Translations under genes and position numbers: made by a program
Sequence record: MZ501081
DNA length: 39,842 nt
Origin: Escherichia phage JeanTinguely
Direction: 5' to 3' (one strand)
Part shown: one piece after another, positions 2,823-20,452 of the stretch
Layout of the letters: the number at the start of each line of letters is the position of its first letter
Position numbering within the stretch: position 1 is the first letter of the stretch
The notes under the pieces: generated by a model
What the model was told of the DNA's origin: nothing
The model's database searches: none
Seen by the model: only the letters and a program-made list of their open reading frames with translations

Positions 2823-3263
2823 ATGATAAGCAAGAAGAAGTATGTAATTGATAAGGATACTGGCTGCTGGAACTTTAAGGGCTGTAAGACGAAGACTGGC
2901 TATGGTCGCATTCGTGTAAATGGAGTCCATTGGATGGCCCACAGGTATTCCCTGAGTTGTCATCTAGGTAGACCGATAGCTGACGGAATGGTTGTGATGC
3001 ACCTATGTGATAATCCTTCATGCGTTAACCCTGAGCACCTTAAGGAAGGGACTCAGAAGGAGAACATAGAGGATTGTATATCAAAAGGCAGGGCAACAAA
3101 GGCTACTGGCAAACGTGTGTCGAGGAGGGACCCTAGTGAGGAACGTAAGGCTATGGTCATTCGTCGATACCATAAAGGGTGGACAGCAACGTCCATAGCG
3201 AGATACCATAAGCTCTCTGTGGCGTGGGTAAAGCTGGTAATTGAGGCTTACCTAAGTGATTGA
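2823..3263 (+). CDS. Free-standing HNH homing endonuclease, 146 aa
   Basis: RBS aaggagg 7 nt before ATG; HNH motif with paired Cys/His (…GYGRIRVNGVHWMAHRYS…HLCDNPSCVNPEHL…); no counterpart at this locus in T7. Confidence 0.8.
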   Translation: MISKKKYVIDKDTGCWNFKGCKTKTGYGRIRVNGVHWMAHRYSLSCHLGRPIADGMVVMHLCDNPSCVNPEHLKEGTQKENIEDCISKGRATKATGKRVSRRDPSEERKAMVIRRYHKGWTATSIARYHKLSVAWVKLVIEAYLSD

Positions 3264-10115: not shown

Positions 10116-10142
10116 ATTTAACCAAACATGGAGATAAACATT

Positions 10143-11159
10143 ATGATGAACATTAAGACTAGCCCGTTTAAAGCAGTGTCTTTCGTAGAGTCTGCCATTA
10201 AGAAAGCTCTGGATAACGCTGGGTATCTTATTGCTGACATTAAGTACGATGGTGTGCGTGGTAACATCTGCGTAGACAATACTGCTAACTGCTGCTGGCT
10301 CTCTCGTGTGTCTAAAACGATTCCGGCACTGGAGCACTTAAACGGATTCGATGTTCGCTGGAAGCGTCTGCTGAACGATGACCGTTGCTTCTACAAAGAT
10401 GGCTTTATGCTCGATGGGGAACTCATAGTCAAGGGCGTGGACTTTAACACAGGGTCTGGCCTACTGCGCACCAAGTGGCTCAACAAGAATAACTTTGAGT
10501 TCGACGTTGGCGGTGTACCTCCGCTCAAGGGGTCCAAGGTTGAGTTCGCGTTGGACACCAAACGTCTGAGTGTCAAACTGTACGCTATCCTCCCTCTGCA
10601 CATCGTGGAGTCTGGTGAAGACTATGATGTCATGACGTTGCTCATGCAGGAACACGTTAAGAACATGCTGCCTCTGCTACAGGAATACTTCCCTGAAATC
10701 GAATGGCAAGCGGCTGAATCTTACGAGGTCTACGATATGGTAGAACTACAGCAACTGTATGAGAAGAAGCGTGAAGAAGGCCATGAGGGTCTCATTGTGA
10801 AAGACCCGATGTGCATCTACAAGCGAGGCAAGAAGTCCGGCTGGTGGAAACTTAAGCCTCTTGAGGAAGCTGACGGCATCATTCAAGGTGTAAACTGGGG
10901 AACAGAAGGACTTGCTAACGAAGGTAAGGTAATTGGATTCAAGGTGCTTCTTGAGACTGGTCGTCTTGTCGATGCCAATAACATCTCTCGCGCCTTAATG
11001 GATGAATTTACAGATAACGTTAAAGAACATGGCGAGGACTACTATAATGGGTGGGCTTGCCAGATTGGATTTATGGAGGAAACACCTGATGGCTCACTAC
11101 GTCACCCGTCCTTCACCTGCTTCCGAGGAACTGAGGACAATCCGAAAGAGAAAGTATAA
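10143..11159 (+). CDS. 1.3: ATP-dependent DNA ligase (gp1.3), 338 aa
   Basis: MMNIKTSPFKAVSFVESAIKKALDNAGYLIADIKYDGVRGN... contains the ligase adenylation motif KYDG; start set at the MMNIKT ATG as in T7 (the ORF track starts 15 nt earlier). Confidence 0.93.
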   Translation: MMNIKTSPFKAVSFVESAIKKALDNAGYLIADIKYDGVRGNICVDNTANCCWLSRVSKTIPALEHLNGFDVRWKRLLNDDRCFYKDGFMLDGELIVKGVDFNTGSGLLRTKWLNKNNFEFDVGGVPPLKGSKVEFALDTKRLSVKLYAILPLHIVESGEDYDVMTLLMQEHVKNMLPLLQEYFPEIEWQAAESYEVYDMVELQQLYEKKREEGHEGLIVKDPMCIYKRGKKSGWWKLKPLEEADGIIQGVNWGTEGLANEGKVIGFKVLLETGRLVDANNISRALMDEFTDNVKEHGEDYYNGWACQIGFMEETPDGSLRHPSFTCFRGTEDNPKEKV

Positions 11160-11559
11160 GTATAACCCTGCGGCTCCTTCTGGAGTCGTTTCCGCCTCTG
11201 GTAAACCAATAGGTTACAAGCGGAAAGATGGGTATTGGCTACTTTCTTATGGAGGAAAGCATGTACTTGCACACAGGGTTGTCTGGATGCTTAACTTCGG
11301 TGTCATACCTGAGGGAATGGTGATAGACCACATTAACAGAAACCCTAGCGATAACCGAATAGAGAATCTTCGAGTAGTAACTCAATCAGCTAACCTAATG
11401 AACGTAGGCGTCCGGTCTCACTGTAGGAGTGGAGAGAAGTTTATCTCCCTTGATGTGAGAACCGGACGTTTTTCCGTTCGTATCAGGAGAAAATCCTATG
11501 GCACATATGGTACTCTCGAAGAGGCTATAGCTGTGCGCGATGCTAATACGACTCACTAA
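11089..11559 (+). CDS. HNH endonuclease with C-terminal AP2-like DNA-binding domain, about 156 aa (start inferred)
   Basis: HNH core HRVVWMLNFGVIPEGMVIDHINRNPSDNRIENLRVVTQSAN plus AP2-like RTGRFSVRIRRKSYGTYGTLEEAIAVRD; RBS ggagga 8 nt before ATG 11089; overlaps the last 71 nt of the ligase gene in another frame. Confidence 0.7.
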   Translation: MAHYVTRPSPASEELRTIRKRKYKYNPAAPSGVVSASGKPIGYKRKDGYWLLSYGGKHVLAHRVVWMLNFGVIPEGMVIDHINRNPSDNRIENLRVVTQSANLMNVGVRSHCRSGEKFISLDVRTGRFSVRIRRKSYGTYGTLEEAIAVRDANTTH

Positions 11560-13918: not shown

Positions 13919-14374
13919 GTGGCTGGCGCATACGCTGCGCGTGGTATCCGAAAGGTCGGGACATTCCGTTCCGGCCTAGAAGATAAGGTCTCTAAGCAGC
14001 TAGAGGGTAAGGGCATTCAGTTCGACTATGAACTATGGAAAATCCCTTACGTTGTCCCTGCGAGCAACCATGTGTATACTCCAGACTTCCTACTGCCTAA
14101 CGGAATCTTTATTGAAACCAAGGGTTTATGGGAGAGTGACGACCGAAAGAAACACTTATTGGTTCGCGAACAGTTCCCCGAACTGGACATCAGACTGGTG
14201 TTCTCAAGCTCACGCACTAAGCTGTATAAAGGGTCTCCGACCAGTTATGGCGAGTTCTGCGAAAAGCACGGTATTCTGTTTGCTGACAAATTAATTCCTG
14301 TAGAATGGCTCAAAGAACCCAAAAAGGAGGTGCCATTTGACAAGCTGAAACAATCGAAGGGAGGAAAGAAATAA
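13919..14374 (+). CDS. 3: Endonuclease I (Holliday-junction resolvase, gp3), 151 aa
   Basis: GTG start directly after the 2.5 stop; MAGAYAARGIRKVGTFRSGLEDKVSKQLEGKGIQFDYE... matches T7 gp3. Confidence 0.9.
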   Translation: MAGAYAARGIRKVGTFRSGLEDKVSKQLEGKGIQFDYELWKIPYVVPASNHVYTPDFLLPNGIFIETKGLWESDDRKKHLLVREQFPELDIRLVFSSSRTKLYKGSPTSYGEFCEKHGILFADKLIPVEWLKEPKKEVPFDKLKQSKGGKK

Positions 14375-14829
14375 TGGCTCGTGTACAGTTTAAACAACGT
14401 GAATCTACTGACGCAATCTTTGTTCACTGCTCGGCTACCAAGCCAAGTCAGAATGTAGGTGTCCGTGAGATTCGTCAGTGGCATAAAGAGCAAGGTTGGC
14501 TTGATGTCGGGTATCACTTTATCATCAAGCGCGATGGTACTGTAGAGGAAGGCCGAGATGAGATGGCTGTAGGCTCTCACGCTAAGGACTACAATCACAA
14601 CTCTATTGGTGTCTGCCTTGTAGGTGGTATCGACGATAAAGGTAAGTTTGACGCTAACTTTACGCCAGCCCAAATGCAATCCCTCCGCTCACTGCTTGTC
14701 ACACTGCTGGCTAAGTACGAAGGCGCTGTGCTTCGCGCGCATCACGATGTGGCACCTAAGGCTTGCCCTTCGTTCGACCTTAAGCGTTGGTGGGAGAAGA
14801 ATGAACTTGTAACTTCTGACCGAGGGTAA
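14374..14829 (+). CDS. 3.5: Lysozyme / N-acetylmuramoyl-L-alanine amidase and RNAP inhibitor (gp3.5), 151 aa
   Basis: MARVQFKQRESTDAIFVHCSATKPSQNVGVREIRQWHKEQGWLDVGYHFII... near-identical to T7 lysozyme. Confidence 0.95.
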   Translation: MARVQFKQRESTDAIFVHCSATKPSQNVGVREIRQWHKEQGWLDVGYHFIIKRDGTVEEGRDEMAVGSHAKDYNHNSIGVCLVGGIDDKGKFDANFTPAQMQSLRSLLVTLLAKYEGAVLRAHHDVAPKACPSFDLKRWWEKNELVTSDRG

Positions 14830-14832
14830 AAC

Positions 14833-14919
14833 ATGATTATTCACGAAATGGGTTTATACGATTTGATTTATCATCTTGCTTTCTTACTGGCAATGGTGTA
14901 CGTACTGACCCGTAATTAA
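14833..14919 (+). CDS. Candidate 28-codon hydrophobic ORF at the position occupied by gene 3.8 in T7
   Basis: ATG 14833 with weak RBS gagg; MIIHEMGLYDLIYHLAFLLAMVYVLTRN; no homology support. Confidence 0.25.
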   Translation: MIIHEMGLYDLIYHLAFLLAMVYVLTRN

Positions 14920-14939
14920 TTGAACTCACTAAAGGGAGA
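14917..14939 (+). promoter_or_regulatory. T7 RNAP promoter phi3.8-type, directly upstream of gene 4
   Basis: taattgaactcactaaagggaga followed by ccacaacggtttccc. Confidence 0.75.
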
Positions 14940-14971
14940 CCACAACGGTTTCCCTTTGTTCGCAATGTTGA

Positions 14972-16687
<1,716 letters not shown>

Positions 16688-17736: not shown

Positions 17737-19695
17737 ATGATCGTTTCTGACATCGAAGCTAACGCCCTCTTAGAGAGCGTCACTAAGTTCCACTGCGGGG
17801 TTATCTACGACTACTCCACCACTGAGTACGTAAGCTACCGTCCGAGTGACTTCGGTGCGTATCTGGATGCGCTGGAAGCCGAGGTTTCACGAGGCGGTCT
17901 TATTGTGTTCCACAACGGTCACAAGTATGACGTGCCTGCATTGACCAAACTGGCAAAGTTACAGTTGAACAGAGAGTTCCACCTTCCTCGTGAGAACTGT
18001 ATTGACACCCTTGTGCTGTCACGTTTGATTCACTCTAACCTAAAGGACACCGATATGGGTCTCCTGCGTTCCGGTAAGTTGCCGGGGAACCGCTTTGGGT
18101 CTCACGCTTTGGAGGCGTGGGGTTATCGCTTAGGCGAAATGAAGGGTGAATACAAGGACGACTTTAAGCGTATGCTTGAAGAGCAAGGTGAAGAATACGT
18201 TGACGGAATGGAGTGGTGGAACTTCAACGAAGAGATGATGGCCTATAACGTTCAGGACGTTGTGGTCACTAAAACTCTCCTTGAGAAGCTACTCTCTGAC
18301 AAACATTACTTCCCTCCTGAGATTGACTTTACGGACGTAGGATACACTACGTTCTGGTCAGAATCCCTTGAGGCCGTTGACATTGAGCATCGTGCTGCAT
18401 GGCTACTCGCTAAGCAAGAGCGCAATGGGTTCCCGTTTGACACGAAAGCAATCGAAGAATTGTACGTAGAGTTAGCTGCGAGACGCTCTGAGTTGCTACG
18501 TAAATTGACAGAAACGTTCGGCTCGTGGTATCAGCCGAAAGGTGGCACTGAGATGTTCTGCCATCCACGAACAGGTAAGCCACTGCCTAAATACCCTCGC
18601 ATTAAGATACCTAAAGTTGGTGGTATCTTTAAGAAGCCTAAGAACAAGGCACAGCGAGAAGGCCGTGAGCCTTGCGAACTGGACACCCGCGAGTACGTTG
18701 CTGGTGCTCCTTATACGCCAGTTGAGCACGTAGTGTTTAACCCATCGTCTCGTGACCACATTCAGAAGAAACTCCAAGAGGCTGGGTGGGTCCCCACGAA
18801 GTACACCGATAATGGTGCGCCTGTGGTGGACGATGAGGTACTCGAAGGAGTACGTGTAGATGACCCTGAGAAGCAAGCTGCCATCGACCTCATTAAAGAG
18901 TACCTGATGATTCAGAAGCGAATCGGACAGTCTGCTGAGGGAGACAAGGCGTGGCTTCGTTACGTTGCTGAGGACGGTAAGATTCATGGTTCTGTTAATC
19001 CCAACGGCGCTGTTACTGGGCGCGCTACTCACGCTTTCCCTAACCTCGCACAAGTACCCGGTGTCCGTTCTCCTTATGGTGATAAGTGCCGCGCTGCTTT
19101 TGGCGCTGAACATCACCTAGACGGTATTACTGGTAAGCCTTGGGTTCAGGCTGGCATCGACGCATCCGGTCTGGAGCTACGCTGCTTGGCCCACTTCATG
19201 GCTCGCTTTGATAACGGTGAGTACGCTAGAGAGATTCTTCATGGCGACATCCACACTAAAAACCAGCTAGCTGCTGAATTACCTACCCGTGATAACGCAA
19301 AGACGTTCATCTATGGGTTCCTCTATGGTGCTGGCGATGAGAAGATTGGGCAGATTGTTGGTGCTGGTAAAGAGCGCGGTAAGGAACTCAAGAAGAAATT
19401 CCTTGAGAACACACCCGCGATTGCAGCACTCCGCGAGTCTATCCAACAGACACTTGTCGAGTCCTCTCAGTGGGTAGCTGGTGAGCAACAAGTCAAGTGG
19501 AAACGCCGCTGGATTAAAGGTCTGGATGGTCGTAAGGTACACGTTCGTAGTCCTCACGCTGCCTTGAATACACTACTGCAATCTGCTGGTGCTCTTATCT
19601 GCAAACTGTGGATTATCAAGACCGAAGAGATGCTAGTAGAGAAAGGCTTGAAGCATGGCTGGGATGGGGACTTTGCGTACATGGCATGGGTGCAT
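17737..19695 (+). CDS. 5: DNA polymerase (gp5) exon 1, codons 1-653
   Basis: [69 protein letters not shown]... colinear with T7 DNA polymerase up to ...DFAYMAWVH; the frame then hits a stop 8 codons later. Confidence 0.9.
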
Positions 19696-20296
19696 AAACT
19701 ATCTCATTGTGCACATTAAATCTGGTGAACTCGGTGAAACCCTTCTGGGGCAATACCGAGCCAAGCCATAGGGAGGATATATGAGAGGCAAGAAGTTAAT
19801 CCTTGCGGCCACAGAGAGTGGTTGTATCATCCCTACGTCGCACAAACTTAATGCTGATGGTTATTTCCGAAAGAAGACGAACGGTGTCCTAGAGATGTAT
19901 CACAGGACAGTCTGGAAGGAACACTACGGAGATATACCAGAAGGGTATGAAGTAGACCACAAGTGTAGGAACAGGGCGTGCTGTAACGTAGAGCACCTCC
20001 AGTTACTAGAAGGTTCTGAGCATACAGTCAAGACAAACAGGGAACGCTACGCTGACCGTAAAGAGTCCGCGAAGGAATACTTGTTGGAGACTGGATGTAC
20101 AGGAACACACTTAGGTGAGAAGTTTGGTGTAACGTTCTCTGCCGCTTGTAAGTGGATTAGAGAGTGGAAGGCGTAGAGACTATCCGAAAGGAGTAGGGCC
20201 GAGGGTGAAATTCCCTCGTTACCCGAAGCGCCAGACAGTCAACTCAAAGGCTGATGATATAGTCCGACACTCCTAGTAATAGGAGAATACAGAAAG
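19696..20296 (+). mobile_element. Group I-type intron (601 nt) in gene 5 carrying an HNH homing-endonuclease ORF
   Basis: Interrupts an otherwise colinear 704-codon gene; preceded by exon U (19695), ends in G (20296); intron gugcac (19709-19714) can pair with exon-terminal gugcau (19690-19695) to form a P1 helix with a U-G wobble at the splice site. Confidence 0.75.
19781..20176 (+). CDS. Intron-encoded HNH homing endonuclease, 131 aa
   Basis: RBS gggagga before ATG; HNH motif ...YHRTVWKEHYGDIPEGYEVDHKCRNRACCNVEHLQLLEGSEH... Confidence 0.85.
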   Translation: MRGKKLILAATESGCIIPTSHKLNADGYFRKKTNGVLEMYHRTVWKEHYGDIPEGYEVDHKCRNRACCNVEHLQLLEGSEHTVKTNRERYADRKESAKEYLLETGCTGTHLGEKFGVTFSAACKWIREWKA

Positions 20297-20452
20297 GATG
20301 AGATTCAAGTAGGTTGCCGTACCGAAGAGATTGCTCAGGTGGTCATTGAGACCGCACAAGAAGCAATGCGCTGGGTTGGAGACCACTGGAACTTCCGGTG
20401 TCTTCTGGATACCGAAGGTAAGATTGGTCCGAATTGGGCAGTATGTCACTAA
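20297..20452 (+). CDS. 5: DNA polymerase (gp5) exon 2, C-terminal 51 codons
   Basis: DEIQVGCRTEEIAQVVIETAQEAMRWVGDHWNFRCLLDTEGKIGPNWAVCH matches the C-terminus of T7 gp5; no start codon or RBS of its own; exon1+exon2 = 704 aa. Confidence 0.85.
   Translation, partial: DEIQVGCRTEEIAQVVIETAQEAMRWVGDHWNFRCLLDTEGKIGPNWAVCH

Follow-up and report, generated by a model that had tools for sequence, protein, structure and literature searches.

A probable mobile IA2-type group I intron with an HNH endonuclease ORF within the gene for the DNA polymerase of Escherichia phage JeanTinguely

A DNA polymerase gene in two exons

The window analysed in this work is the whole 39,842-nucleotide record MZ501081 of Escherichia phage JeanTinguely, a complete T7-like genome (Teseptimavirus) that is permuted and starts near the Rz and terminase genes, as do the BASEL records. 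Across 95% of its first 25 kb, the genome is 97-98% identical to those of Bas103 and Bas104, and it holds 11 T7-type promoters when up to 3 mismatches are allowed. Gene 5, which encodes the DNA polymerase, is split by an insert as follows, the splice junction being marked by a slash from here on:

17737..19695, + strand: gene 5 exon 1, codons 1-653, ending in ...AYMAWVH with the His codon CAU (ORF list; colinear with the intronless YpsP-G gene and T7 gp5)
19696..20296, + strand: insert of 601 nt read as a group I (IA2-type) intron, from the base after exon U19695 to omega-G20296 (intronless-allele boundaries; RF00028; covariation)
20296, + strand: omega-G, a G in all 16 alleles
20297..20452, + strand: gene 5 exon 2, codons 654-704 (DEIQVG...NWAVCH) and TAA, without its own start codon or RBS

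The upstream ORF (17737..19719, 660 aa) tracks T7 gp5 through AYMAWVH, whose last residue is codon 653 (end at 19695), and then runs through seven unrelated codons, KLSHCAH, into a stop. In a different frame from exon 1, nucleotides 20297-20452 encode DEIQVGCRTEEIAQ...NWAVCH followed by TAA, and the stretch from the in-frame stop at 20255 up to 20297 holds no ATG, GTG or TTG. When 19695 is joined to 20297, the product is a 704-aa polymerase that shares 690 of its 704 residues with the intronless polymerase of the Yersinia phage YpsP-G and equals in length the product of T7 gene 5 (14353-16467); in the junction region, 57 of 60 bases are identical to the intronless gene. Since only 19695/20297 restores both the reading frame and the AWVH/DEIQ of the intronless gene, the boundaries are unambiguous, with no room for sliding. 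Comparison with intronless alleles thus sets the insert at 19696-20296 (601 nt), and the exon-exon sequence expected across the 19695/20297 junction is ...GGGUGCAU/GAUGAGAUU.... An earlier sequence-only reading had proposed a gene 5 frame that runs from 17737 to codon 653 and stops early, a startless C-terminal stretch of 51 residues at 20297-20452 in another frame, and a join of T7 gp5 length; all three elements were recovered here.

The insert lies between the His and Asp codons of the H-D-E motif (motif C) of a family A polymerase, AWVH/DEIQ in JeanTinguely, and the same H/DE site is occupied in 16 of 16 intron-bearing alleles examined, which come from five phage lineages. Asp654 of the T7 DNA polymerase is a catalytic metal ligand. 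The His codon at the site is CAU in all 16 intron-bearing alleles and CAC in the intronless T3 gene; in the former, CAU supplies the U for the wobble pair of P1 described below.

The correct annotation of JeanTinguely gene 5 is join (17737..19695, 20297..20452). Many GenBank records of related phages present exon 2 as a separate gene (K1F gp5.4, 'DNA polymerase', 'hypothetical protein') or give it no annotation, and an unjoined exon 2 in the public records amounts to a systematic annotation error for this gene 5 intron family. Taken at face value, the records in which exon 2 stands as its own gene (K1F gp5.4, Ro45lw and SU7) would suit a different arrangement, in which the insert is kept in the RNA and the polymerase is made as two associating polypeptides of 660 aa and about 51 aa. 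We regard this as very improbable: exon 2 has no RBS and no start codon between the 20255 stop and 20297, the split would separate the His of motif C from its catalytic Asp, no reason would remain for a complete ribozyme that covariation shows to be conserved (see below), and other records (13a, K1F, Bas102 and Bas104) do annotate a gene 5 join.

The group I core and its covariation

The Rfam family RF00028 (group I catalytic intron) matched 19686-20286 with the model covered end to end, at 36.8 bits and an E-value of 1.2e-7 for the region; it was the sole Rfam match in the whole 39.8-kb genome at E<=0.05 (genome-wide E 5.8e-6). Against the group I reading counts the score itself, which lies below the curated cutoff of 50, and at the curated gathering thresholds the whole genome gave no Rfam match. 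The covariance-model scan of 19696-20296 that the sequence-only reading had proposed as a check spoke for it in the extent and E-value of the alignment but not in the score. The shortfall is likely due to the 396-nt ORF inside P6 and to the missing P2; an ORF-less relative of 272 nt from Salmonella phage Arash clears the Rfam cutoff with 58.9 bits. The Arash intron (OQ632216, positions 849-1120 of the fetched locus) carries no HNH ORF, is 74% identical to the JeanTinguely intron in its 3' half and occupies another site of a family A polymerase, apparently motif B (...QGAKSVTF/GLLYGAT...), and that polymerase's two halves bear the annotations 'DNA polymerase nu' and 'DNA polymerase theta'.

An interruption of the gene, taken alone, would also agree with an intein, a group II intron or a translational bypass, to which together we give a negligible probability. 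The intein was rejected, as the insert shifts the frame and reaches a stop 8 codons in; the group II intron was rejected, as Rfam gave no match to a group II family, even at E<=10, or to another family beside RF00028, and the ORF is an HNH nuclease only; and the bypass was rejected, as 601 nt is too long, being to our knowledge far beyond any ribosomal hop described.

The Rfam alignment and the sequence together served as the basis on which the structure of the insert was drawn. In a phage collection, a distant BLAST search with the insert found relatives in 115 records, 52 of which cover at least 80% of it. Loci were fetched from the Teseptimavirus phages 13a, Bas104 and Bas102, the Berlinvirus PC192, the Kayfunavirus phages K1F, Ro45lw and CHRF_10037, the Aeromonas Studiervirinae phage PT2, the other Autographiviridae RCIP0053 and DT115P1, the Gordonclarkvirinae ECBP2, SU7, 1-6bf and PE006, and the 112-kb Vibrio phage Vp_R1. 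The covariation alignment held 13 distinct sequences from five phage lineages, with the ORF removed, and the following elements were placed on it:

19690..19714, + strand: P1, 19690-97 with 19707-14 (internal guide); 8 pairs, 100% paired in 13 homologues
19701..19707, + strand: P10 guide strand, partner at the start of exon 2 (20298-20304); 93% of cells paired, with compensatory changes
19721-27 with 20229-35, + strand: P3; 7 pairs, 5 of them compensatory, 100% paired
19731-36 with 19754-59, + strand: P4; invariant, helix recovered by MFE folding
19740-43 with 19747-50, + strand: P5, with A-rich J4/5 and J5/4; 2 compensatory pairs, present in the MFE fold
19760-62 with 20170-72, + strand: P6, 3' strand within the 3' end of the ORF; one compensatory pair, 96-100% paired
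19766-69 with 20164-67, + strand: P6a, 3' strand within the 3' end of the ORF; one compensatory pair, 96-100% paired
20178-83 (GACUAU) with 20259-64 (AUAGUC), + strand: P7, forming a pseudoknot with P3; invariant in 13 homologues
20184-91, + strand: P7.1, CC-GAAA-GG; invariant
20193-95, + strand: G-U-A linker between P7.1 and P7.2; invariant
20196-98 with 20222-24 and 20200-05 with 20213-18, + strand: P7.2; 3 compensatory pairs
20236..20253, + strand: P8 hairpin, 20236-40 with 20249-53; 4 of 5 pairs compensatory
20254..20264, + strand: J8/7 (AUGAU) and the P7 3' strand, together the conserved GAUAUAGUC element; aligned to the RF00028 consensus
20270..20285, + strand: P9 hairpin, 20270-75 with 20280-85, GUAA tetraloop; 4 of 6 pairs compensatory, 100% paired

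Across the 13 homologues, 98.2% of the 762 cells that make up 60 pairs in 12 helices are standard pairs, and 22 of the 60 pairs show double-sided (compensatory) changes, a result that none of 500 shuffles reached in any of five measures. When the 3' partners were slid by 1-3 columns as a control, pairing fell to 36-44%. Compensatory changes occur in P1, P3, P5, P6, P6a, P7.2, P8 and P9, while P4, P7 and P7.1 are invariant, and minimum free energy folding of the ORF-deleted RNA recovers P4/P5, P7.1, P7.2, P8, P9 and the long-range pairing of P10 type. The catalytic core is therefore present and under structural selection. The sequence-only reading could not see P3-P9 by eye and had named a missing group I core, together with absent splicing in vitro, as grounds for giving up its proposal; P3, P4, P5, P6/P6a, P7, P7.1, P7.2, P8, P9 and P10 can now all be drawn with covariation behind them.

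The core of P1 pairs the exon segment gugcau (19690-95) with gugcac (19709-14), and its wobble pair at the 5' splice site, U19695.G19709, is UG in 13 of 13 homologues; the guide varies in step with the exon, from GC to AU at the outer pair. This pairing, the exon-terminal U and the intron-terminal G had all been pointed out before, and the helix proved two pairs longer (A19696:U19708 and A19697:U19707). P10 covaries in a similar manner, the base at intron position 19703 being C in alleles with GAG as the exon Glu codon and U in those with GAA. The two strands of P7 correspond to the classical R and S elements, and the GAUAUAGUC element at 20254-20264 is invariant in every HNH-carrying relative fetched (15 loci). 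P2 is absent from the JeanTinguely intron. Joining of P7.1 and P7.2 by G-U-A is described as a hallmark of the IA2 class in PMC3428280.

The introns of the Klebsiella phage RCIP0053 and the Edwardsiella phage DT115P1 have an extra hairpin between P1 and P3, ACGUC-GAGUAAUU-GACGU, which is the P2 missing in JeanTinguely, and in both the intron ORF stops earlier, ahead of the 3' strand of P6.

Within 9 nt of the junction, three synonymous changes set JeanTinguely apart from T7 and YpsP-G (GGGTGCAT/GATGAGATT versus GGGTACAT/GATGAAATC), namely, relative to T7, A to G at 19692, A to G at 20302 and C to T at 20305. Both changes to G turn an A.C mismatch into a G:C pair, one in P1 (G19692:C19712) and the other in P10 (G20302:C19703). 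The synonymous changes at the junction may also keep the allele's own endonuclease from cutting it.

The HNH endonuclease ORF

The loop of P6a contains an ORF with its own ribosome binding site:

19771..19776, + strand: RBS GGGAGG, 4 nt ahead of the ORF AUG (read from the sequence; GGAG core kept in all homologues)
19781..20176, + strand: ORF of 131 aa in the loop of P6a, HNH homing endonuclease orthologous to I-TslI (HNH_3; phrog_6254; 87% identity)

Residues 40-82 of the product match Pfam HNH_3 with 61.3 bits (cutoff 24.8; E 6.7e-17), the catalytic residues D59-H60, N69 and H72 are present, and the protein also matches PHROG 6254 (HNH endonuclease), so that the RBS and the 131-aa HNH ORF proposed earlier from the letters of the sequence were borne out. 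An exact-sequence look-up identified the product as QXV80881.1, 'putative homing endonuclease' of Escherichia phage JeanTinguely (Bas64). It belongs to a 158-member 90% cluster together with I-TslI of PhiI (AAV53690) and the endonuclease of 13a. In the protein-level comparison with I-TslI it is 87% identical and differs at 17 of 131 residues; these differences, and the short spacing of 4 nt between RBS and AUG, count against a working endonuclease gene. The copies of the ORF gave dN/dS values of 0.06-0.26 in all comparisons (Nei-Gojobori), and the endonuclease is therefore under purifying selection. An AlphaFold single-sequence model of the protein was of too low quality for use (pLDDT 46.7), and a search of the PDB with the protein sequence found no relative.

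No T7-type promoter was found between 13173 and 22146 with up to 3 mismatches allowed, which suggests that the transcript of the ORF is the gene 5 pre-mRNA; a scan of the region for sigma-70 promoters and terminators gave nothing above background. A structure that would sequester the RBS was also looked for, and none could be supported. The ORF's final 13 nt double as the 3' strands of P6a and P6, and a single base (A20177) stands between the ORF stop and P7. On one RNA molecule, translating the ORF thus probably competes with folding the ribozyme core, perhaps to the point of mutual exclusion.

Two further ORFs of this genome have HNH_3 domains. The first, 2823-3263 on the + strand, is free-standing, encodes 146 aa with HNH_3 (E 8.9e-9) and HTH_23, and lies directly downstream of ORF 1025-2785, the terminase large subunit by position and by the annotation of Bas104; it is probably another homing endonuclease, and it resembles the intron ORF across the HNH core only (44% over 55 aa). 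The second, 11002-11559 on the + strand (185 aa, HNH_3 E 3.2e-20), overlaps the 3' end of ORF 10128-11159, matches the intron ORF at 33% identity over 60 aa and represents the third HNH endonuclease gene of the genome.

Mobility and relation to known introns

When 19654-20335 was compared with the Escherichia phage BUCT788 (PV540240), the intron was 97% identical, whereas the polymerase gene around it was about 55-65% identical. The borders are sharp, as identity rises about 40 nt upstream of the 5' splice site and drops 16-40 nt past the 3' splice site. Introns of K1F-type Kayfunavirus phages are 80% identical to that of JeanTinguely, and the 97% of BUCT788, set beside this value, indicates a recent transfer of a 13a-type intron into a distantly related phage. 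The pattern is the footprint to be expected of homing in which co-conversion tracts are short, spanning a few tens of bases. The distribution is patchy as well: 370 records match the junction region, mostly through the exon flanks, and 31 of the 370 cover at least 80%, intron included. Phages with the ribozyme-plus-HNH unit are found in genera of Studiervirinae, in other Autographiviridae, in Gordonclarkvirinae and in the Vibrio phage Vp_R1 (112 kb).

It might be argued that the ribozyme still splices while the endonuclease no longer works or no longer has a target, the intron having become a stationary passenger. The 17 substitutions relative to I-TslI and the short RBS spacing would fit such a state, and introns are known to pass, after fixation, through a stage of the homing cycle in which homing activity is lost. 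We nevertheless consider it unlikely, since the ORF is intact and keeps the D-H...N...H motif, dN/dS stays at 0.06-0.26 throughout the comparisons, a near-identical copy has recently moved into the distant polymerase gene of BUCT788, and the intron is patchy among T7-like genomes (the 31 of 370 matching records above). We favor the reading of 19696-20296 as a mobile IA2 group I intron that lacks P2, has P7.1 and P7.2, holds the ORF in the loop of P6a and sits between His653 and Asp654, and give it a probability of about 0.93.

Splicing and cleavage in JeanTinguely are proposed here by analogy with the literature on PhiI and W31. The intron would be transcribed as part of the gene 5 pre-mRNA and the RNA would fold so that exon 1 and the internal guide form P1, presenting the U19695.G19709 wobble. 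A free guanosine bound in P7 would attack 3' of U19695; P10 (19701-07 with 20298-304) would align exon 2, omega-G20296 would take the place of the guanosine, and exon ligation would yield the mRNA for the 704-aa polymerase. The 131-aa HNH protein, the I-TslI orthologue, would be translated from its own RBS and, in a mixed infection, would cut intronless gene 5 alleles near the insertion site, and repair of the cut genome from the intron-bearing copy would bring in the intron together with a few tens of bases of the flanking exons (homing). More tentatively, and with less than even confidence, we hypothesize that one ribozyme-plus-HNH unit has been moving between unrelated phage families, always at the H/DE boundary of family A polymerases, with the P1 and P10 guides re-tuned to each exon, with junction changes that may protect the allele, and with translation and folding that may exclude each other.

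The main importance of the JeanTinguely intron lies in annotation. It is a textbook case of a homing intron lodged where the codons of an essential gene are most conserved and opens no new question, and gene conversion around the site is to be expected in phylogenies and recombination analyses that run across gene 5.

The JeanTinguely intron is an already known and annotated member of a characterised family. In 13a (EU734174, NC_011045), Bas103 and Bas104, the intron is 99.2-99.3% identical to that of JeanTinguely along its full 601 nt, and the annotation of gene 5 is a join of two pieces with the internal endonuclease between them; the ORF differs by 2-3 aa, and otherwise there is essentially no difference. 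A gene 5 join is also annotated in K1F and Bas102, a K1F intron is mentioned in PMC4925675, and the BASEL authors annotated intron boundaries (PMC8594841). Self-splicing of the gene 5 intron of PhiI and W31 has been reported (Bonocora and Shub, 2004, cited in PMC3428280), and that article describes it as an IA2 intron without P2, with an HNH ORF in P6a that has its own RBS, at a site equivalent to E. coli Pol I position 881. The JeanTinguely intron shares the host gene, the His/Asp site 881, the IA2 class, the lack of P2, the P6a ORF and its own RBS, and this, with an ORF 87% identical to I-TslI, upholds the earlier assignment to the PhiI/W31 class. Relative to the PhiI/W31 intron, it is a sequence variant that may be called the '13a type', and its P10 guide base is C19703 instead of U, which fits the exon codon GAG instead of GAA. 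The endonuclease of Bas102 is 98% identical to I-TslI, and its intron DNA is 86.9% identical to that of JeanTinguely.

In T3, the homologous gene 5.3 product (HNH_3) shares 48% identity with the intron ORF across 95 residues (E 9e-32); the gene is free-standing, directly downstream of the intronless T3 polymerase gene and without a surrounding ribozyme, and its 101-aa product has no counterpart of the intron protein's C-terminal ~35 residues. This product reportedly cuts the polymerase gene at the I-TslI position, and Bonocora and Shub, in work from 2009, are said to have described I-TslI-dependent mobility of the intron and its relation to T3 gene 5.3.

The td, nrdB and sunY introns of T4 and the SPO1-family polymerase introns (I-HmuI) are, like that of JeanTinguely, phage IA2 introns in essential genes of nucleotide metabolism or replication, with an endonuclease ORF looped out from a peripheral helix and an ORF end that overlaps core helices (PMC3073962, Table 1). 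They differ from it in their host genes or sites, the SPO1 type lying at polymerase site 674 according to PMC3428280, and the T4 introns carry endonucleases of other families (GIY-YIG), in contrast to the HNH endonuclease of JeanTinguely.
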